A DNA stretch of 64,000 nucleotides, from positions 96,001-160,000 of the forward strand of contig CAVOXA010000010.1 in assembly GCA_963700285.1 (NCBI GenBank), given 5' to 3'. Each line of letters begins with the position of its first letter. The stretch's first letter is position 1. Positions 35,199 through 55,437 of this stretch are shown piece by piece. Under the pieces are notes generated by a model. That model was not told the DNA's origin and ran no database searches. It was given only the letters and a program-made list of their open reading frames with translations. Both the position numbers and the translations under genes were made by a program. The stretch is from an uncultured Chloroflexia bacterium. GTDB taxonomy: Bacteria > Chloroflexota > Anaerolineae > JAAYZQ01.

Positions 35199-37298
35199 TT
35201 ACGCTAGAAATCGCGTGACCTCAACCAATACCGAGTGGGTACGCGAGTTGCGGCTGGGCAGCGTGGGCTCCGTGCTGGTCAGGACATTGGCCGCACCAGC
35301 AGTGTCGGTACCGTCCGGTTCAAGCAAAGGCCACACACCTTCCAGAAGGCAGACCACGCCCGGCATGATGTCCTCGGTCACCCTGGCTCCGATACGCATC
35401 TTGCCCTGGGGGCTGGAAACGATGACCTTTGCGCCGTTCTCTATACCCCTTTCCGCTGCGTCATCGGGGTGCATCCACAGCGCCTGCTTCTCTTGCTCCC
35501 TGAACCAGGCGATATTATGATACTGGGAGTGGACGCGGTATTTCGGGTGCGGCGTAATCAGCCTCAATGGGTGGCTTTCAGTCGTTGGAAACGTCCTGAG
35601 CTTGGGGATCGGGGCATATCCCGTCTCAGCATAGGCCGCTGAGGCTATCTCCACCCGGCCCGATGGCGTACTCAGCGGATGCTCCTGTGGATCGGCGACA
35701 AAATCAGAGAGACCCACCCGCAACTGATCGGCGCCCAAATAGATGCCAGTACGCTTGAAGGCCTCATAGTCCGCCACTTCCGAGTCTGTGATAAAACCGC
35801 TGAGCCACTCCTCAGCGCTCTTGCCCTCAGAGAACCCGGCTAGAAAGCCCAGCCTCTCCGCTAACTCACAAAAGATGTCATAGTCGTTCTTGGCTTCGGG
35901 CATGGGTGGAACCGCTTGATTGGAAAACAGCAAATAGTTGCCGCTATCGGGAAAGACGATATCGTCTCTTTCCAAGAAGGTTGTGGTGGGCAGAACCAGA
36001 TCGCAATGACGCGCTGTCGGCGTAAGCACAAAATCATGGCAGACGGAAAAATCGACTTGGGTAAAGGCCCGCATGTTCTTTTTGATGTCGCTGCCCTGCA
36101 CGACAAAATTGCCGCCGACATTATAGATAGCCTTGATGTCGACAGGATAGCCGCCCCGTTTCCCTTCCAGGATGGCATCGGGCCAACAATACTGCGGCAC
36201 GGAGGCCTGGACCGGATTAGAGGGCCAGCCAATCTTTCCCGCGCGAGCAGATGGCTGCACATTCCAGAGGGGAGAACCCGACGAACCGCCCAGGATGCCC
36301 AGATTGCCTGTGGCAACCTGCATGGCTATCGCCATACGGCTTGCTTCCTCCCCACCGATGGTCCGTTGAATGGACCAACCTGGAATGAGGGCGGTCGGGC
36401 GGGTACGCCCATACCGGCGCGCGAACTGTACGATCATCTCGGTGGGTGTGCCACACACTCCCTCCGCCCATCGAGGCGTCCTGGCCTCTCCATCTGCATG
36501 GCCGAGAATGTACTGCTCAAGCTCATCAAACCCGGTACTGTACTTTCGCAGAAAGGCCCGGTCTACCAAGCCCTCTTCAAGCAGTACATACAGCACGGCC
36601 ATCATCAGGGCCGTGTCCGTCCCGGGAAGAACCGGGATCCATTGCGTACCCAGCGTCATTGCCGTCCTTGACCGGCGGGGATCGATGACGATCACCTCGA
36701 TCCCTCTCGATCTAGCCTCGCGGATGTGGGCCTCTGTGTCGCAGCCCATGCGGGTGTCGGCGATATTCGCGCCCCACAGGACAATCAGGTTGGAGAATTG
36801 CAGGGTAGCCGGGTCAATGCCTGCCGGCGCCCTCCCCAGAACATAGGGAACAGCAAAGCTGGCCGCGCCCGTACTATAGTTGCCGGTCGTCCAGGTAAAA
36901 CCACCAAACATTGCCAGAAACCGTTTTGTCAGGCCGCCGGTGTTGTGCAGCGCACCCCTGCAAGAACCACTCCCTCCCAGGTAGAGTATCGCCTCGTTGC
37001 CATACCTGGCCTTGATGCCGGACAGCCGCTCAGCCACATAGTCGAGAGCCTGTGGCCAGGAGATTTCCTGGAATTCGCCCGAACCCTTGGCCCCACTTCT
37101 GAGCAGCGGTCTCTTGATCCGATCGGGGGCGTATAGGGCCCTCTTCATCTGGCGTCCCTTTTCGCAGCCATACATCGTCGGTTTGGCCAAGGGGTTGTTG
37201 GTAATTCTCGCAACGCGGCCGTTCTTGATGTGGGCCAACAACGGGCACCCACCACCGCAGTCTAGGTTGCACGAAACCGGTAGCGTTCTTGTCGACAT
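35199..37298 (-). CDS. DMSO-reductase-family molybdopterin oxidoreductase, copy 2
   Basis: CNLDCGGGC...CEKG Fe-S motif, GNYS Mo-Ser ligand, LPTTTFLER, TPSGRVE, RVHSQ; no Tat signal. Confidence 0.95.
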   Translation of the reverse strand: MSTRTLPVSCNLDCGGGCPLLAHIKNGRVARITNNPLAKPTMYGCEKGRQMKRALYAPDRIKRPLLRSGAKGSGEFQEISWPQALDYVAERLSGIKARYGNEAILYLGGSGSCRGALHNTGGLTKRFLAMFGGFTWTTGNYSTGAASFAVPYVLGRAPAGIDPATLQFSNLIVLWGANIADTRMGCDTEAHIREARSRGIEVIVIDPRRSRTAMTLGTQWIPVLPGTDTALMMAVLYVLLEEGLVDRAFLRKYSTGFDELEQYILGHADGEARTPRWAEGVCGTPTEMIVQFARRYGRTRPTALIPGWSIQRTIGGEEASRMAIAMQVATGNLGILGGSSGSPLWNVQPSARAGKIGWPSNPVQASVPQYCWPDAILEGKRGGYPVDIKAIYNVGGNFVVQGSDIKKNMRAFTQVDFSVCHDFVLTPTARHCDLVLPTTTFLERDDIVFPDSGNYLLFSNQAVPPMPEAKNDYDIFCELAERLGFLAGFSEGKSAEEWLSGFITDSEVADYEAFKRTGIYLGADQLRVGLSDFVADPQEHPLSTPSGRVEIASAAYAETGYAPIPKLRTFPTTESHPLRLITPHPKYRVHSQYHNIAWFREQEKQALWMHPDDAAERGIENGAKVIVSSPQGKMRIGARVTEDIMPGVVCLLEGVWPLLEPDGTDTAGAANVLTSTEPTLPSRNSRTHSVLVEVTRFLA

Positions 37299-37348
37299 AC
37301 ACGCATCCTTGGGAATAGTCAGCGAGGAACAAAGCCCTCGCCATTGTT

Positions 37349-39451
37349 TTAGAAACGCGCCTGCGTGACCTGAACCAGAACAGAGTGGGTACGCGAGCTG
37401 TAGCTGGGTAGCGTGGGCTCCGTACTGGTCAGGACATTGGGTGCCCCGGCCGTTTCGGTGCCATCCGGTTCAAAGGAGGGCCACACGCCCTCCAACAGAC
37501 AGACCACACCTGGCATGATGTCCTCGGTCACCCTGGCTTCAATGCGCATCCTGCCCTCAGGGCTGGAAACAATGACCTGCACGCCATTTTCTATGCCCCT
37601 TCTTGCTGCGTCGTCGGGGTGTATCCACAACGCCTGCTTCTCCTGCTCTCTAAACCAGGGGATGTTGTCATACTGGGAATGAACGCGATATCTCGGGTGT
37701 GGGGTGATCAGCCGCAGTGGGTGGCTGCCGGTCGTTCTGAACTCTCTAGGCTTGGGAAAGGAGGAATATCCGGTCTCAGCATAGTAGGCTGTCGAGGATA
37801 TCTCCACCAGGCCCGATGGCGTACTCAATGGCTGGCTCTGGGGATCGGCCACGAAATCAGAGAGCCCTACCCTGAACTGATCGGAGCCCTGATAGATGCC
37901 AGAACGCTTGAACTCCTCATAGTCAGGCACGTCCGAGTCCGCGACAAAACCCTCGAGCCATTCCTCAGTGCTGTTGCCTTCGGAAAAGTCGGATAGAAAG
38001 CCCAGTCTCTCTGCCAATTCACAAAAGATATCATAATCGTTCTTGGCTTCGGGCATGGGAGAAACTGCCTGATTGGAGAATAGCACATAGTTGCCGCCAT
38101 CGGCAAAGACGATGTCGTCCCTCTCCAAAAAGGTTGTAGTAGGCAGGACCAAGTCGCAATGGCGCGCTGTCGGCGTAAGGACAAAGTCATGGCAAACGGA
38201 AAACTCTACCTGGGCAAAAGCCCGCTTGTTCTTCTCGATATCGCTGCCCTGTATCAGCCAGTTGCCGCCGACGTTATAGATCGCCTTGATGTCAGCGGGG
38301 TAGCCGCCGCGCTGACCTTCGAGGACAACATCAGGCCAGCAGTATTGCGGCACGGTGCCCAGGACCGGATTAGAGGGAACCCCAATCCTACCCACGCGGG
38401 GGCCTGGCAGCTTGTTCCAGAGCGGGGATCCCGAAGACCCGCCCGGGCTGCCGAGGTTACCCGTGGCAACCTGCAGGGCAATGGCCATGCGGCTTGCTTC
38501 CTCCCCGCCGAGAGTTCGTTGAATGGACAATCCCGGGATGAGGGCGGTCGGGTGGGTACGGCCGTACTGCCGTGCGAATCGCACGATTGTGTCGGCGGGC
38601 GTGCCACAGATTGCCTCCGCCCATTGTGGTGTTCTGGCCTCCACGCCCGCATTGCCCAGAACGTGCTGCTCCAACTCGTCAAAGCCTAAGCTGTACTTTC
38701 TCAGAAAGGCCCGATCTACCAGGTCTTCTTTGAGCAACACGTACAGTACTGCCATCATCAGGACTGTGTCCATCCCAGGCAGGACAGGGATCCATTGGGT
38801 GCCCAACGTCTTTACTGTCCTCGACCGGCGGGGATCGATCACGATCACCTCGACCCCTCTGGACTTGGCCTCTCGGATGTGGGCCTCTGTGGCGCAGCCC
38901 ATGCGGGTATCGGCAATGTTCGCGCCCCACAGGACAATCAAGCTGGAAAAACGCAGGGTAGCCACGTCAATACCTGCCGGCGAACTCCCCAGGGCATATG
39001 GGACAGCAAAGCTGGCTGCCCCCATGCTGTAGCTACCTACGGTCTCGGTATGGCCGCCAAACATGTTCAGGAAGCGCAGGGTAAGCATCTTGGTATTGTG
39101 CAACGCGCCCCGGATGGAACCAGTTCCTCCCAGGCGGAGTAGCGCCTCGTTCCCGTACCTGGCTTTGATGCCGGACAGCCGCTCGGCTACATAGTCCAGG
39201 GCGTGGGGCCAGGAGATTTCCTGAAACTCGCCCGAACCCCTGGGCCCGGTTCTGAGCAGCGGTCTCTTGACCCGATCAGGGGCATACACGGCCCTGGCCA
39301 TCTGACGCCCCTTTTCACAGCCATGCATGGATGGCCCGGCCAGGGGGTTGTTCGTGATTCCCGTGATGTGGCCATCTTCGGTGTGGGCCAGCAACGGGCA
39401 CCCGCCGGTGCAGTCCAAGTTGCAGGTAACCGCTATCGTTCTTTTCGACAT
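37349..39451 (-). CDS. DMSO-reductase-family molybdopterin oxidoreductase, copy 1
   Basis: CNLDCTGGC...CEKG, GSYS ligand; colinear paralog of 35199-37298. Confidence 0.95.
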   Translation of the reverse strand: MSKRTIAVTCNLDCTGGCPLLAHTEDGHITGITNNPLAGPSMHGCEKGRQMARAVYAPDRVKRPLLRTGPRGSGEFQEISWPHALDYVAERLSGIKARYGNEALLRLGGTGSIRGALHNTKMLTLRFLNMFGGHTETVGSYSMGAASFAVPYALGSSPAGIDVATLRFSSLIVLWGANIADTRMGCATEAHIREAKSRGVEVIVIDPRRSRTVKTLGTQWIPVLPGMDTVLMMAVLYVLLKEDLVDRAFLRKYSLGFDELEQHVLGNAGVEARTPQWAEAICGTPADTIVRFARQYGRTHPTALIPGLSIQRTLGGEEASRMAIALQVATGNLGSPGGSSGSPLWNKLPGPRVGRIGVPSNPVLGTVPQYCWPDVVLEGQRGGYPADIKAIYNVGGNWLIQGSDIEKNKRAFAQVEFSVCHDFVLTPTARHCDLVLPTTTFLERDDIVFADGGNYVLFSNQAVSPMPEAKNDYDIFCELAERLGFLSDFSEGNSTEEWLEGFVADSDVPDYEEFKRSGIYQGSDQFRVGLSDFVADPQSQPLSTPSGLVEISSTAYYAETGYSSFPKPREFRTTGSHPLRLITPHPRYRVHSQYDNIPWFREQEKQALWIHPDDAARRGIENGVQVIVSSPEGRMRIEARVTEDIMPGVVCLLEGVWPSFEPDGTETAGAPNVLTSTEPTLPSYSSRTHSVLVQVTQARF

Positions 39452-39452
39452 A

Positions 39453-41945
39453 TTACACATCCTCTAACAAGATCCCCCGCCCTCTCCGTCTGCGAATCAG
39501 GGAACTGGACAGAGCGATCGCGATGAGGAGGACCCCAGCAAGCATACTAACCGCCAGGCCGGTGCGGAAGGATGGCGGGCTGTATCTGAACTCGACGGTG
39601 TGTTTCCCCTGCCGCAGAGGGACAGCTCTGAACAAATAGTCAGCCTGGTAGATCCGGTCCTCTCGCCCATCTACAAACACCTGCCAGCCGGGATAGAAAG
39701 TGTCGGTTAGCACCAGGAACCCATCCGCCTGAAGCTCGGTCTCGATCACAACCTTGTGTGGCGAGTACAATGCAATGTTGGGTGAGGGTGGCCAATTGCG
39801 GCTGACGAGTGGCAAATAAACATCTCCCGTACTTGGGACCGACCCAGGGCTCTCTGCTTTTGCGGCGAGCCGATCACCCTGGTCCTGCACTGGGAGGGGT
39901 TCCTCCTCCAGAATGACACTACGGCCTGGATCAAAGCCCTCACTCAGCAAGCGGCTCAGTACCGCCTGCTCTAAGGGAATGACTTCCACCTCGTAGACGA
40001 CAAAGGCTCTGGGCAGGACCGATTTGTTCTCATAGACCTCATGACCCCCACCGGTGTAGGCGCTGGTATAGCCCGGGAGTTCGGTTCCCTTTTCCACGAG
40101 CGCATACTTGACCCCAGCCAGATTGCGCAGCGTCTCACTTTCGCCCAGGGCTTCGAGGAATACCTCGTATCGCCGCAGGGCCAATTGAGAGACATGGCCT
40201 TGAGCGCTATAGAGACCGTAGGCAGTGGCCATATCCTCCAGGAGGTACTCCACCATGTCCTCGCGGCCAAGAGAGAACACCCGGTATAGGCCCAGATTCT
40301 GTTGCAGGAAGCCTGTGGACCCGGTCTGCCGTGCATAGTACGAGCCCTCGCGCACCGGATTGATGGCAGTTCCTCCTGCCAGTAAAAGGTCTACCACAAT
40401 CAAACCAACCAGCAGGATCTGAAAGGCGGGCGCCTTGATCCGCCTCTTGTTCCAAAGGCAGATGAGCAGGAAACCTGCATTGCTAAAGAATACAAAAAGC
40501 AGTACAGGGTTCAGGGACGCCAGCGTCATACCCGGGTTGTCCGAGAGCTGAATCAGCGGGAGCCGGATGAGCCCGCGGACCAATATCAAGATCCGCCCCA
40601 GCCACTGTTCGGGAACCAACCCAGTCCCCAGGGTTTCGAGACGCTGGGCCACTTGTTGGCCAAAGGCCACTCCCGTCAGCAGCATCAGGGAAAAGGCCAG
40701 GTTCAGCCAGCCCAGTATTCGCCAAAAAGAGGAGAACCGGCTGGATTCCAGGCCAGCGCGGTCCCCTACCAGGGCATCATAGCCATAGCCGGCCAGGACA
40801 GACAGGGAAAAGGTAACGGTGAGCAACCATCGAGCCGGCACCCGAAAAAAGTTAAAGCCGGGCACATGGACCAACAAACCGTACAGGGGGGTGTAACGCC
40901 CCAGGGCAAGCAGGAGGGAAAACCCCGCCAGCAGGGCAAAGAAGGTCACGTTCCTGTCGTACTTCCGCTTGAGCCAGGCCCAGGGAACCAGCATCAGGGG
41001 CAAAATGCCGACGTAGCCGTGCAACTCTTCAAAGAGCCCTTCCCCTTTGAAACCGATAACCGGATTGCCATGGATGCCTGGGAAGAGAAAGGTCAGCGGG
41101 TGGTAGGGAGGAAGGGAGAACACGGTCATCATGCCATGGCTCAAACCTGTGGCCCGGAGCGAAAGCGCCTTCAGTTCCCAGGTTGGAGCAATCTGGACGG
41201 CGGCCAACAAGAGCCCGGCGGCAACGGCCAGGGCCATCAGAGACAGAAGGATGGCTGTCCCTTTTCTCTTGGCCAGGGGGGTGGTTTCGGCATCCCGCCA
41301 CAGACCATACAGCCAGAAGGCGCCATAGGCTCCCAGAGCGAGCAGGGTATAAAAGACAACCTGCGGATGGGACGCGAAAACCTGGAGGGCGATGGCCCCA
41401 CCGCAAAGGATGGCATACGACAGGCTCCTGGTCTCAAGCGTCTTGACAAAAAGAAAAAAGACCAAGGGCAGCCATACGCTGCCCGTCATGATGGGCAAAT
41501 TGGTCAGTTGGGCCATCATGTATCCGCTCAGAGAAAAGGCAAGCGCCATGATGAGGGCACCGACCCTGCTGATCCGCAGCCCGCGGGCCATCACATAGCT
41601 GGCGACACCCGCCACGACAAAATGGGCAACGACGAACCAGCTCAGAGAGAGATGCGGTGACAGAGGAAGAAGGAACAGCAGGTTCAGTGGATTGAGCGCG
41701 ATCACGTCTTGATCCGCCAGTTGGGGGAACCCAAACTCGATAAAAGGGTTCCATAGAGGCAACTGACCTACGCCCAGCAGACGCCCCTTCAAGACGCCCA
41801 GCGGGTAGTGGATCATGACCACGTCCCTGTAGTAGAGCGTCTTGTCCAGCAGGAACAATTCAAAGAAGGAGATGACCGGCAGAAAGAACAGCAGGAGCAG
41901 GACCAAGAGATCTTTGCGGTCGGGCAGCCTTTGTCGCCAATCCAT
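39453..41945 (-). CDS. YfhO-family membrane protein (GT-C type)
   Basis: GQLPLWNP..GFP, HPQ, YVGILP, FFRVPARW, PRAF, LTDTFYPGW, FRYSP. Confidence 0.92.
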   Translation of the reverse strand: MDWRQRLPDRKDLLVLLLLFFLPVISFFELFLLDKTLYYRDVVMIHYPLGVLKGRLLGVGQLPLWNPFIEFGFPQLADQDVIALNPLNLLFLLPLSPHLSLSWFVVAHFVVAGVASYVMARGLRISRVGALIMALAFSLSGYMMAQLTNLPIMTGSVWLPLVFFLFVKTLETRSLSYAILCGGAIALQVFASHPQVVFYTLLALGAYGAFWLYGLWRDAETTPLAKRKGTAILLSLMALAVAAGLLLAAVQIAPTWELKALSLRATGLSHGMMTVFSLPPYHPLTFLFPGIHGNPVIGFKGEGLFEELHGYVGILPLMLVPWAWLKRKYDRNVTFFALLAGFSLLLALGRYTPLYGLLVHVPGFNFFRVPARWLLTVTFSLSVLAGYGYDALVGDRAGLESSRFSSFWRILGWLNLAFSLMLLTGVAFGQQVAQRLETLGTGLVPEQWLGRILILVRGLIRLPLIQLSDNPGMTLASLNPVLLFVFFSNAGFLLICLWNKRRIKAPAFQILLVGLIVVDLLLAGGTAINPVREGSYYARQTGSTGFLQQNLGLYRVFSLGREDMVEYLLEDMATAYGLYSAQGHVSQLALRRYEVFLEALGESETLRNLAGVKYALVEKGTELPGYTSAYTGGGHEVYENKSVLPRAFVVYEVEVIPLEQAVLSRLLSEGFDPGRSVILEEEPLPVQDQGDRLAAKAESPGSVPSTGDVYLPLVSRNWPPSPNIALYSPHKVVIETELQADGFLVLTDTFYPGWQVFVDGREDRIYQADYLFRAVPLRQGKHTVEFRYSPPSFRTGLAVSMLAGVLLIAIALSSSLIRRRRGRGILLEDV

Positions 41946-43423: not shown

Positions 43424-46060
43424 CTACAGAGTCACCCCAAGATGGTCTGGCTCTAGCAAGAGATCGAGCAAGCGCAAGCAGTTGCTCTTTGTATCCTCCC
43501 CAACCTCGGCCACTGGCCCGACGCACGAAGGGCAGCCTCGCTGGCAGCGACAGGCACGGACCAAATCGCGGGCTGCCAGCAGCAGCGTCCCGTGAAGCTG
43601 GTACAGCGCCTCGCTAAAGCCCAACCCGCCCGGCGCATTGTCATAGATGGTGATGGTGGGCTGTTTGGTGTACGACGATTTGACCTCACTCACCACGCCA
43701 ATGTCCCGGGGGGCGCTCATCAGGTACAGCGGCGCCAGGTGGCGGACCAGATGGGACAAACCACTCAGCGTACCTCGCACCATGCGGTCCACCTCCACCC
43801 GGCGGTGGCAGGAACGGCAGAGGGTCACCAAATTCTCCAGCCGGTTGGCCTCCAGGTAGCGATCGTTCTGATCCCGCATGTAACCAAAAGTACGGAAGGG
43901 TTGGATATGGTGCACATCGTGGGCCCGGTTGGGGCGCTCTGCCGCCCCACAGTGACGGCAGACGTGACCATCCCGCGCCCGGGCCTGGTTTCGTTGTCGC
44001 TCCCAATTGGGCCCCCGATCGTCCCGCCCCATGTTGAGCAGCCCCTCCTGTTCCAGTTGGGCCGATAGCTCTGGCATGATGTTGAACCAATAGGCCGTCG
44101 TTTCCATCTCCTGTTCGGGAATGCTCTCGGGATGGATCTCACCCCAACCCAGGATCTCGTGGGTGTACAGCCGCACCTTCTTGTAGGACGTTGCCTTGGA
44201 CGTCAGCAGCACCTGACCGTGGGACTTGAGCGCTACTGTACCCGCCATCTGCTCGTTCACATCCATGACCTGTACATTGACCGACAGGCTGGCTTGGGTA
44301 TAGTATCCGGCCTCGACCGGTTCTACCTCGGCACGGCGTCCCTCCCAGTCCAGTTTTCTCACCTGGTAGGACTCGCCACCGTGGATATAGATCGCTCCCT
44401 CGTGGATCAGCAACGGCACGCTCTGCCGGTCGACCACACCAATCGCGCGACCATGCTCCCCACCGATGCCCCCTTCCTGCGAGGTGTCCACGACCACAAA
44501 GTTGTCCATCTCGGCCGCGCGCAGGCTTATGGCTTCGGCAGGATAGCTCTGGTCGGCCCAGTGCCATTGCCCCCCGCTGTGGCGCAAAAGCCCCTCCTCC
44601 TCCAGGAAAGCCAGTACCTCCTGGGTATGGGGAAAGCGACCAAAGGCCTCGTCCTGGGCAAAGGGCAACTCAAAGGCAGCGCAGCGCACGTGGTTGACGG
44701 CGATGGCCAAGTTGTCGGGATTGAGCAGCGCCTGCTCCGGCGACCGCCCGAAAAAATAGTCGGGGTGGGTAACAATGTACTGATCCAAGGGTGATCCGCC
44801 AGCTACCAGCACGGCAGCGGAGGTCTCGGAACGGCGGCCCGCCCGCCCCGCCTGCTGCCAGGTACTGGCGATGGTACCCGGGTAGCCGGTCATGAGGCAG
44901 GCGTCCAGGTGACCGATATTGATACCCAGTTCCAGGGCATTGGTGGCCACCACGCCCAACACCAGGCGCTCGCGCAGCCCCCGCTCAATCTCGCGCCGCT
45001 CCGACGGCAGGTAGCCGCCCCGGTAGCCCTGGACCTTCTTGGGGTCCAGCCCATCGCGAGCAGCCGAGTCCCGGAGGTAGGTGAGCAGCACCTCAGTAGT
45101 CAGACGGGCGCGGGCAAAAATGATGGTCTGGATCCCAGCCTCTAGAAATCGTTCGGCCAGGAGCCGGGTATCGCTCACCGCGCTGCGGCGGATGCCCAGT
45201 TCGCGGTCCACAATCGGCGGGTTGTAGAACAAAAAGTGCTTCCCACCCTGGGGCGAACCATCCTCCTCTTGACCCACCAGAACAAAGCGATCCTCGGTCA
45301 GGCGCTCCGCCAGCTCCAGGGGGTTGGCGATGGTTGCCGAGGCACAGATGATCTGGGGTGAGCTGCCGTAGAAAGCGCAGACGCGCTTGAGCCGGCGGAG
45401 GACATTGGCCACGTGGCTGCCGAAAACACCCCGGTAGGTGTGGATCTCGTCCAAGACTACGAACCGCAACCCCTGGAAAAAGCCCGCCCAGCGGGTGTGG
45501 TGAGGCAGAATGCCAGTGTGCAGCATGTCGGGATTGCTGATCACGATCCCGGCTGTTTTCCGGATGCGCGGCCGAGCTCCCTGGGGCGTGTCACCATCGT
45601 AGGTATGTACCTCAAGCCGGGCGCCGGGTTGCTGCCTGGCTGGCCCGCTGCTAGAGGGAGGCATCGCGGGAAGGCGCTCCAGCGCACCCTTCAATCCGCC
45701 CAGCTCGGCCAACTGATCCTGAGCCAGGGCCTTGGTGGGGAACAGGTAGAGCGCCCGCGCCGAAGTATCGGCCAGCAGTTTGTCCAGTACCGGCAGGTTG
45801 TAGCACAGCGTTTTGCCGCTGGCAGTGGGAGTGACAACAACCACGTTCTTGCCGCGCAATGCGGCCCCCACCGCCTTGGCCTGGTGGGTATACAGGTGCT
45901 CAATGCCGCACTGGCGGAGCGCCGTCACCAGGCGCGTATCGATCCCGGCCGGGAAATCAGCATAGCGCGCCCGACGGGGCGCCAGCCGCTGCCAACGGGT
46001 GATCCGCCGCGCCAACTGCGCATCGTGCTCGATCTGGTCGAGTACATCCTCTAGATTCAT
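43424..46060 (-). CDS. Hrq1/YprA(MrfA)-type DEAH helicase with DUF1998 C-terminus and inserted HNH domain
   Basis: LYTHQ, TPTASGKT, DEIH, SAT, ATNALELGI, QQAGRAGR, PGGLGFS, CRCQRGCPSC. HNH insert CRHC...DVHH...NL.TLCRSCH at about 43790-44015. Confidence 0.93.
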   Translation of the reverse strand: MNLEDVLDQIEHDAQLARRITRWQRLAPRRARYADFPAGIDTRLVTALRQCGIEHLYTHQAKAVGAALRGKNVVVVTPTASGKTLCYNLPVLDKLLADTSARALYLFPTKALAQDQLAELGGLKGALERLPAMPPSSSGPARQQPGARLEVHTYDGDTPQGARPRIRKTAGIVISNPDMLHTGILPHHTRWAGFFQGLRFVVLDEIHTYRGVFGSHVANVLRRLKRVCAFYGSSPQIICASATIANPLELAERLTEDRFVLVGQEEDGSPQGGKHFLFYNPPIVDRELGIRRSAVSDTRLLAERFLEAGIQTIIFARARLTTEVLLTYLRDSAARDGLDPKKVQGYRGGYLPSERREIERGLRERLVLGVVATNALELGINIGHLDACLMTGYPGTIASTWQQAGRAGRRSETSAAVLVAGGSPLDQYIVTHPDYFFGRSPEQALLNPDNLAIAVNHVRCAAFELPFAQDEAFGRFPHTQEVLAFLEEEGLLRHSGGQWHWADQSYPAEAISLRAAEMDNFVVVDTSQEGGIGGEHGRAIGVVDRQSVPLLIHEGAIYIHGGESYQVRKLDWEGRRAEVEPVEAGYYTQASLSVNVQVMDVNEQMAGTVALKSHGQVLLTSKATSYKKVRLYTHEILGWGEIHPESIPEQEMETTAYWFNIMPELSAQLEQEGLLNMGRDDRGPNWERQRNQARARDGHVCRHCGAAERPNRAHDVHHIQPFRTFGYMRDQNDRYLEANRLENLVTLCRSCHRRVEVDRMVRGTLSGLSHLVRHLAPLYLMSAPRDIGVVSEVKSSYTKQPTITIYDNAPGGLGFSEALYQLHGTLLLAARDLVRACRCQRGCPSCVGPVAEVGEDTKSNCLRLLDLLLEPDHLGVTL

Positions 46061-49981: not shown

Positions 49982-52308
<2,327 letters not shown>

Positions 52309-52405
52309 CCTAGTACTGGACCTCCTCGTCGGTCGTTTGCGCGCCGCCTGGGCGCACCGCGCGCGGCGGAAGGGGAGTATCTTGGCCTGGTTTTGGCCAG
52401 TAAGT

Positions 52406-52639
52406 TCAGTCTCGGGCAGCGCTCGGATCGACCAGCCATCCTGCGGCCTCGTGGTAGAGCAGCTCAAAGCGCTGGCCTGTCTCCGTCCGGACGCAAAAGG
52501 CCGGGCCATCCGGCGTCCGCCAGCGGCTCTCGATACGAGTCACCGGATAGCGCTGCCCCTGCCACAGCACGGCCCTCGGTTCCTGGGCATAGGTATGGCC
52601 GGAATAGCATTCGACCCGAGCGGCTTCCTGGTCAGCCAC
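52406..52639 (-). CDS. Small hypothetical protein (DUF6504-like)
   Basis: VECYSG.....P....WQG.RY.V......WRTP. Confidence 0.7.
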   Translation of the reverse strand: MADQEAARVECYSGHTYAQEPRAVLWQGQRYPVTRIESRWRTPDGPAFCVRTETGQRFELLYHEAAGWLVDPSAARD

Positions 52640-53640
52640 GGCCCTGGGCAAAGTCCAGCCGGGCCGAATCGCCCACGTTCAGCACCCGGTAGCGGCCTCG
52701 CACCACGGCATCTTTGCCGATCAGGGAACGATCCAGCATCGTGTCGTCGATATAGGCTCCCTCGTCGATGATCGAGTCGCGGACGATGGAGCGCAGGACC
52801 ACGGCTGTTCTCGGCAATCGTGACGTAGGGGCCAACGATCGAATGCTCCACCCGGGCTGAGGGGGCAATATACACCGGCGGGATGATCACCGAGTCCGGT
52901 GACGCAACCTCGCCGCCATTGTCCCGGCCGTGCTCCAGGAGATAGCGGTTGGTCTTGAGCACATCCTGGGGCGTGCCGCAGTCCTCCCACACCGACACCT
53001 CTCGCACGCCAAAGCTCGCGCCCTGCTCGATCATTACCGTGAAAGCATCGGCCAGGTAGAATTCGCCCTTGGTCTGCATGTCGCGCTCCATCAGCTCTTC
53101 GATGGCCCGCAGTCAGCCAGGCTCCATCGCGGATATAATAGACGCCGACAATGGCCAGTCGGTTCTCAAAGGTATCGGGCTTTTCCACCAGGCCTGACAC
53201 CAGCCCGTCATCCCCGAGCACAGTCACCCCAAAACGGCGGGGATCCTCCACCTCCTTGACGTAGAGCATGCCATCCAGCCCTGAAGTCTCCAACCCGCTC
53301 AGATCCGCCTCAAAGATGTGTCCACAAAGATGATCAGCACGGGCCCGTCCAGGTACTCTCGGGCCAGCCAGATGGCATGGGCTTGGCCCAGGAGTTCTTT
53401 CTGTTCCACGTAGCGGGCCGGATAGGGATAATCGCTGGCCTCATAGTACTCCTGGATCTGCTCGCCGAGCCAGCCGACGATAAAGATCAGCTCGTCGACC
53501 TCTACGTCCAGGTCAGCCAGCTTGTCCAGGATGTGGCCCAGCACCGGCTTGCCGGCCACGTTGACCAGCGGCTTGGGTTTGGACCAGGTGTGGGGCCGCA
53601 TCCGCTTGCCGAACCCCGCCAGGGGAATGATGACTTTCAT
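52632..53640 (-). CDS. Sugar-phosphate nucleotidyltransferase with LbH C-terminus, frameshifted
   Basis: IIPLAGFGKRMRPHT..KPKPL, LGQAHA, DPRRFGV, VEKP, GEFYL, WEDCG, hexapeptide tail. Confidence 0.92.
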
Positions 53641-53671
53641 GTTTTCCTGTATCTCCTGTGATGATTGCCAA

Positions 53672-55139
<1,468 letters not shown>

Positions 55140-55143
<4 letters not shown>

Positions 55144-55437
55144 CCGTCCGCCTCCAGCACCACCGGCACCCGGAAGCAGTCCTCCTCCACGCTCGGGGCG
55201 TTGGCCAGCACGTCGGCCAGCGGCAGCGAGGGCTGCGACCTCGTCATCGCGCATGACGTTTTCCAGGGGCAGAACGGTGGCCGTGGGGGGAATGGCCGCG
55301 GTATCCAGTTGCTGCAGGCGCTCGGCATAGGCCAGGATAGAGGACAGCTGCTCGCGAAACAGTTCTTTCTCCTGGTCGCTCAAAGCCAACTGGGCCAGTT
55401 GGGCCACGTGTTCCACTGCTTCAGAGCTCAGTTTCAC
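55140..55437 (-). CDS. gatC: Asp/Glu-tRNA amidotransferase subunit C, frameshifted
   Basis: VEHVAQLAQL, QLSSIL, NVMRDD, LANAP....FRVP. Confidence 0.93.

Follow-up and report, generated by a model that had tools for sequence, protein, structure and literature searches.

An HNH nuclease domain inserted in the MrfA-type repair helicase of the Chloroflexota class Anaerolineae

Introduction

MrfA (YprA) of Bacillus subtilis is a 3′-5′ motor (PMC7797055) that works with MrfB, a 3′-5′ exonuclease that acts on ends, nicks and gaps and, in the published model, has the 3′ end near its active site (excerpts of PMC11194089). The pathway is stated to lack a factor (PMC7797055 and excerpts of PMC13705206), named as a recruiter or partner, not an endonuclease, in PMC7797055 and in excerpts of PMC11194089. 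How MrfA and MrfB find and open damaged duplex is an open question, and a MrfA that carries a conserved endonuclease allows it to be tested directly. Such a protein is encoded in the stretch of DNA analyzed here (64,000 nucleotides from an uncultured Chloroflexota bacterium, hereafter the window), where an HNH nuclease domain interrupts a MrfA-type helicase. A preliminary description of the gene had proposed a single-chain helicase-nuclease for crosslink repair or defence. We asked whether this HNH domain is likely to cut DNA, and in which process.

An HNH domain is inserted at the start of the MZB domain

The gene is a single open reading frame of 878 aa without an internal stop (Table 1); a longer frame from a TTG start, reaching 46270, was rejected since no homology supports the extra stretch. 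Pfam places DEAD at residues 58-246, Helicase_C at 307-410, WHD_HRQ1 at 447-516 and MZB/DUF1998 at 768-847, and the protein aligns with B. subtilis MrfA (6ZNP; E 3.2e-233) in two stretches, residues 13-662 with 14-633 and 761-867 with 644-749, bearing out its first assignment as a MrfA-type helicase. Between these stretches stand 98 residues here versus 10 in MrfA, a net insert of 88 aa at the CON/MZB junction, early in MZB and following its first helix (MrfA domain limits: CON 557-630, MZB 631-749; PMC7797055). The preliminary description had put the insert at about 75 aa (43790-44015), which fits the HNH core and falls short of the full insert with its linker.

Table 1. Features of the MrfA-HNH gene in window coordinates.
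Feature	Coordinates	Strand	Basis
mrfA (yprA)-type gene, DUF1998/MZB superfamily-2 helicase with inserted HNH nuclease	43424..46060	-	homology, Pfam, AlphaFold/Foldseek
RecA1 and RecA2 motor, aa 39-443	44732..45946	-	boundaries mapped from MrfA
Winged helix, OB and connector (CON), aa 444-660	44081..44731	-	MrfA domain limits from PMC7797055
Insert (linker and HNH), about aa 674-761, between MZB helices 1 and 2	43778..44041	-	
HNH (beta-beta-alpha-metal) core, aa 682-757	43790..44017	-	Pfam, fold, alignment
Remaining MZB/DUF1998, aa 762-868	43457..43777	-	alignment to MrfA, Pfam
Four-cysteine zinc motif C837/C839/C843/C846	43523-43552	-	in MZB/DUF1998 domain

The helicase motifs and the C-terminal cysteines are intact, as had been noted: Walker A has K83, the DExH box D204-E205-H207, motif III S241-A-T and motif VI Q402/R406/R409. 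K83, D204, E205, H207, Q402, R406 and R409 were invariant across the alignment rows spanning the motor (213/213), R514, the counterpart of the MrfA rope arginine R491, was kept in 212/213, and C837, C839, C843 and C846 were each kept in 254/255. The AlphaFold model of the whole protein (pLDDT 89.7) has 6ZNP as its top Foldseek match (42% identity, TM 0.80). The protein thus has the SF2 DExH RecA pair, the WH-OB-CON-MZB order with its rope arginine, and the MZB zinc motif of the MrfA/YprA repair helicases. At position 782, where DUF1998 begins, serine replaces the cysteine of MrfA-like proteins in this protein and in 93/255 relatives; the replaced cysteine is not among the four zinc ligands.

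Together, our results confirm that the gene encodes a MrfA/YprA helicase with an HNH-bearing insert at the start of MZB, and because the same insert occurs at the same place in hundreds of relatives, it is not a product of chance. The variant is apparently undescribed: our literature search found no paper on it, and the term "HNH" is absent from the main text of the MrfA structure paper of Roske (PMC7797055).

The HNH domain is intact and conserved like the motor

Pfam recognizes HNH at residues 701-754 (31.5 bits, cut-off 21.4; E 1.9e-7), and the AlphaFold model of the insert (pLDDT 89.4) has HNH proteins as its top fold matches (PDB E 4e-3; viral library E 1e-6). Both zinc knuckles and the H-N-H residues are present, as first described: the core holds a [CxxC]2 zinc site (C701/C704/C748/C751) together with H717, H718, N743, H752 and E756, in a predicted beta-beta-alpha-metal fold. 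In a profile alignment to GVE2 HNH, H718, N743 and H752 fall on H93, N109 and H118, and excerpts of PMC5304195 report that substituting these residues removes 94, 60 and 83% of nicking, respectively, that the H93 mutation does so with an unchanged CD spectrum, and that N109 and H118 are partly structural.

All nine positions (C701, C704, H717, H718, N743, C748, C751, H752 and E756) were invariant in 260/260 aligned sequences, a set biased to intact copies by the 236 that came from insert-based searches and possibly containing some duplicates. In a less biased check, 21/21 same-class genomes found via the motor alone carry an intact insert, and 30 low-scoring class matches that we picked keep the key residues wherever the contig shows them; E756 was replaced by D in 1 of 21 further loci read. 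Conservation of the HNH residues among orthologs had been set beforehand as one of two points on which the nuclease reading could fall, and on this point it holds.

Mean top-residue share was equal for the HNH domain (0.74) and the motor (0.74-0.75). dN/dS came to 0.08-0.21 for HNH versus 0.12-0.26 for the motor in five pairs (a sixth was saturated), showing that purifying selection acts on the insert as it does on the motor. In the same pairs the synonymous divergence of HNH was similar to that of its flanks, indicating that the domain has been passed down vertically as part of the gene.

A conserved domain might nonetheless not cut, and instead act as a zinc-stabilized DNA-binding wedge or a guide for the displaced strand. 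MrfA has no obvious strand separator (PMC7797055), N109 and H118 of GVE2 have their structural share, and DotN entries, which are not described as nucleases, share the fold of the insert in our fold search. Yet H718, at the catalytic position, is invariant in the 260 sequences, and inactivated nuclease domains of YprA proteins are recognized by their lost residues (PMC12458937), none of which is lost here. We consider a non-cutting role unlikely.

The insert resembles viral HNH endonucleases

The closest free-standing relatives of the insert are viral (134 IMG/VR stretches, of which 80 were kept as L119-L198; best 64% identical), and PHROG 1271 and 8446, of the zinc-finger-array build described below, match its HNH domain. 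HNH proteins similar to the viral ones are also carried by haloarchaeal viruses and plasmids, and the best solved match is GVE2 HNH (5H0M; PMC5304195), by sequence (E 2.4e-8) and by fold (TM 0.62, E 4e-3). Most of the 40 viral frames read have N-terminal cysteine-rich finger repeats followed by a C-terminal HNH; in some members of this large viral family (L141, L169, L171) further kinds of N-terminal domain are attached. A finger array with a C-terminal HNH is a build typical of homing endonucleases. The HNH module was likely captured from a virus, and we infer that the targeting role passed from the viral finger array to the helicase motor.

Family f7 (L012, L066, L078, L085, L089) differs from the rest: all five members read are without the first MZB helix, have different junctions and carry a more virus-like HNH motif, and two of them group with viral rows in an HNH-only tree. 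A second capture or a replacement in this family is possible.

Such an ancestry raises the question of whether the insert is itself a selfish element, be it a homing endonuclease or the remnant of an intein or intron. Its resemblance to viral homing-endonuclease-like proteins and the deviating f7 junction would fit, but no splicing domain or intein family was found in Pfam, in line with the preliminary reading that it is no intein, and Rfam gave no match to a structured intron RNA at E 0.01. Moreover, the insert has no DNA-binding array, occurs once in this genome and has diverged at synonymous sites as its flanks have, and no decayed copy was seen among loci read from 81 genomes. A patchy, mobile distribution with a DNA-recognition domain of its own is not what the insert displays, and we regard a selfish element as highly improbable.

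The HNH form is the normal MrfA of Anaerolineae

Of the 28 genomes that represent the window's class in a sample of 250 from Chloroflexota, 23 had the insert, and the five without it also gave no MrfA or MrfB match. In other classes 104 genomes had a MrfA-type motor, and 103 of these motors were insert-free; the sole fusion lies in a genome with 8% contamination (G015), and a second out-of-class HNH match proved to be a free-standing 219-aa HNH protein. Among 301 Anaerolineae genomes, 237 matched, 230 with the HNH type (part read directly, the rest called by match length or score) and seven insert-free (six read, one called by score; families f67, f105 and f109). Source labels of the matches include Anaerolineae, Anaerolineales, Thermoflexales, Brevefilum and Anaerolinea thermophila, the last a cultured thermophile (P0201), and Atlas clusters were commonest in Chloroflexota. 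By this sampling, the HNH form is the normal MrfA of class Anaerolineae.

A motor tree without four paralog rows places HNH-bearing and insert-free motors on two sides of one starred branch. Adding these rows makes two changes necessary, and a single HNH clade is then rejected by an AU test (p 0.021), a value from a quick LG+G4 tree of 34 of the 61 rows in which long branches are possible. The HNH-only tree (86 columns) was poorly resolved, and a single capture was not rejected (p 0.20). The fusion may have been gained either once, or earlier and then lost in some lineages.

MrfB is retained alongside MrfA-HNH

No exonuclease gene adjoins the helicase, as first reported: open reading frames and Pfam matches of the window show as neighbours a response regulator, a TIGR04076 protein, a nitrilase-family gene and a MaoC-family gene. 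Further off, the window holds a tandem pair of molybdopterin subunit genes of the DMSO-reductase family, each about 700 aa long (35199-39460, minus strand). Several genes at 50000-55400, among them upp-like, aminotransferase and gatA-like amidase genes, read in shifting frames that are likely assembly errors, like those in other parts of this genome.

The suggested correlation of the HNH form with absence of mrfB was contradicted. An MrfB-like gene with RNase_H_2 and TPR domains (L001; C10:549,976-551,300) lies on the same contig, about 410 kb from mrfA; its reading frame seems to shift near the start, and such shifts are frequent in this assembly. Overall, mrfB was kept in 213/230 HNH-type genomes, the other 17 being draft genomes that gave no MrfB match, while in the 301-genome sample 11 had an MrfB but no MrfA match and 53 had neither gene; kin genomes in these counts are not independent. 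All HNH-type genomes of the phylum sample keep mrfB (23/23), directly downstream in six and unlinked in 17. Six loci of family f4 have this downstream arrangement, and coordinates indicate it for G252, G255, G316, G352, G432 and G477. DEDDh-type motifs were present in 19/19 intact mrfB frames read.

As mrfB is retained in 213/230 genomes and lies directly downstream in some families, we conclude that HNH adds to MrfB rather than replacing it. A one-protein pathway in which HNH takes the place of MrfB could appeal to the missing adjacent exonuclease and to the 17 genomes without an MrfB match, but this co-occurrence largely refutes it, and we find it barely credible.

Neighbourhoods and LexA-type boxes

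The neighbourhoods of 25 HNH-type loci consist of family-specific housekeeping genes. Candidate conserved partners other than mrfB were rejected, the largest family, a lysylphosphatidylglycerol-synthase-like gene, being present in only 10/25 loci. Some loci have ruvC/ruvA, dinB-like or mutL genes close by, again family-specifically (3-4/25).

A promoter and terminator scan of the locus gave nothing useful. The pattern GAAC-N4-GTTC, which we take to be a LexA-type box, stands before both lexA genes of this genome, two tandem paralogs each with its own box (G000:C9:95,000-96,650), and before lexA in perfect form in 4/5 relatives. The genome also has two recA genes (C10:720,719 and 1,823,368). 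Perfect boxes within 300 bp upstream were found at 11/20 insert-free mrfA loci versus 1/50 HNH loci, seven of the 11 coming from three related families and two from one genome. The boxed loci are L039, L041, L044, L046, L049-L052, L056, L057 and L062, with the box 26-65 bp before the gene. These boxes would place insert-free Chloroflexota mrfAB in the SOS regulon, tying the MrfA family to the damage response in this phylum, and suggest that the HNH form either is not directly under SOS control or sits inside operons.

The near absence of this box, the mostly unlinked mrfB and the repair genes at some loci would suit an active HNH with another job, namely an ATP-coupled, structure-specific nuclease for forks, flaps or recombination intermediates that is partly independent of MrfB and adduct excision. 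Such a nuclease would be conserved at the same residues (260/260), and the insert has a weak profile match to the HNH domain of ZRANB3 (E 0.008), a eukaryotic translocase to which it may be likened. On the other side, genomes of the class retain or lose MrfA-HNH and MrfB as a pair, and the repair neighbours are family-specific. We judge this alternative somewhat unlikely.

MrfA-HNH lacks the operon and chain features of known defence systems

YprA helicases fused to nucleases have roles in defence (PMC12458937), HNH is a common defence effector and the insert resembles viral proteins, all of which would agree with a stand-alone anti-phage helicase-nuclease like DruE, ARMADA or CasDinG-HNH. The gene is, however, class-wide, vertically inherited and set among housekeeping genes. 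PADLOC gave only weak matches among nine window neighbours (PDC-M60B, 0.003; SduA, 0.0005, to the response regulator), and its matches to the 878-aa protein are limited to helicase cores. A conserved operon with methylase, helicase or sensor partners was seen neither around the window gene nor at the 25 loci, and the protein is collinear with MrfA apart from HNH, with no BrxA-like insertion, enlarged chain or C-terminal PLD, Vsr or RNase H nuclease. No full-length match to MrfA-HNH was found in 72,556 plasmids or 50,697 phages, and Brevefilum and Pelolinea proteins are filed as "MrfAB-like" in Table S1 of PMC12458937. It is other DUF1998 helicases of this genome that occupy defence-like settings. 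The housekeeping neighbourhoods in particular make a defence role, one half of the preliminary proposal, unlikely, and we give a stand-alone anti-phage system little credence.

Further DUF1998 helicases were observed in this genome. One, frameshifted, lies just upstream of BREX-like pglX, pglZ and brxL with a Fic-family gene between (L229; G000:C22:1-16000), one is larger, DruE-like and in pieces (L230; G000:C14, about 218,000-222,800), and one is a second MrfA-like paralog, which has no insert and is spread over several reading frames (L005; G000:C9, about 267,200-269,600), with similar paralogs in L048, L054, L055 and L061.

Discussion

We propose, with a probability of roughly 55%, that MrfA-HNH of Anaerolineae is a repair enzyme whose HNH domain nicks DNA where the motor is loaded, providing an incision for MrfAB-type repair. 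The MZB domain of MrfA makes up a large part of the funnel through which DNA enters, provides one wall of a proposed displaced-strand channel, and rotates by about 63 degrees when DNA is bound (PMC7797055). Because MZB lines the funnel, an HNH domain on MZB would face the duplex ahead of the motor, a position that we infer from domain adjacency only. With the viral zinc-finger array left behind, the motor would now position the nuclease, and HNH might nick where the motor is loaded or stalled, cutting ahead of it (beyond the adduct or on the displaced strand) or making an entry nick. MrfB could then trim from the 3′ end, and polymerase and ligase would fill in.

In support of incision are H718 at the catalytic position of GVE2 H93, the residue conservation, the co-retention of MrfB and the place of the insert beside funnel and channel. 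Against it, the pathway of B. subtilis runs on a MrfA without insert, as is also found in 103/104 MrfA-bearing genomes of other Chloroflexota classes, so that HNH is dispensable for the pathway as such; the published missing factor is a recruiter or partner; mrfB is unlinked here and in 17/23, gave no match in 17/230 and in this genome has apparent frameshifts; E756 is D in one further locus; and the LexA-type box contrast (11/20 versus 1/50) counts mildly against it too. The repair half of the preliminary proposal is thereby retained as most likely, with cutting predicted, although "crosslink" needs care: according to excerpts of PMC13705206, the lesions that B. subtilis MrfAB handles are monoadducts and intrastrand crosslinks and do not include interstrand ones.

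A bolder and more tentative reading is that a viral homing-type HNH was domesticated, perhaps twice at the same site, giving a self-incising, UvrABC-independent excision machine (nick, unwind, and trim with MrfB) outside SOS control. If true, it would show the step that is missing from the B. subtilis pathway, and the insert site would mark where a separate incision factor docks on MrfA of other bacteria.

HNH is predicted to supply a cut that has no assigned enzyme in a known two-protein repair pathway, and its role could be tested with one protein and one H-to-A change, the A. thermophila protein (P0201) being easy to obtain. Complementation by such proteins is reported to require closely related alleles (PMC12458937). 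The locus clearly illustrates how a nuclease module, probably of viral origin, has become fixed in a chromosomal enzyme throughout one class of bacteria. It belongs to the repair branch of the YprA family, for which a survey of 52,000 proteins lists no nuclease insertion of HNH type (PMC12458937). The finding is less surprising in that fusions of helicases with nucleases are well known in general.

Comparison with known systems places MrfA-HNH closest to B. subtilis MrfA (YprA; 6ZNP/6ZNQ/6ZNS; PMC7797055), with which it shares the collinear NTR-RecA1-RecA2-WH-OB-CON-MZB order, the rope arginine and the four zinc cysteines, the B. subtilis protein being without the net 88-aa HNH insert. MrfB (8UN9; PMC11194089) is kept as well, but its gene is usually unlinked. 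With the viral zinc-finger-array endonucleases and GVE2 HNH the insert has the catalytic module in common, whereas the viral proteins mostly carry N-terminal finger arrays and the insert is the catalytic module only. ZRANB3 (structure 5MKW) likewise combines an ATP motor and a nuclease in one chain. So do CasDinG-HNH and ExoDinG (PMC12345164), and S. aureus DinG has been described as like a MrfA-MrfB fusion (PMC12345164); the motor families and nuclease positions of CasDinG-HNH, ExoDinG and ZRANB3 differ from those of MrfA-HNH, and CasDinG-HNH, unlike MrfA-HNH, is RNA-guided through a CRISPR complex (PMC12345164). Finally, Druantia DruE, ARMADA, DISARM DrmAB, Dpd and TALON (PMC12458937) belong to the same helicase family and have a nuclease on or beside the chain, but these defence systems have extra domains and operon partners, unlike MrfA-HNH, and their nucleases are PLD, Vsr, EEP or RNase H, C-terminal or in a separate gene, and none is HNH (PMC12458937).
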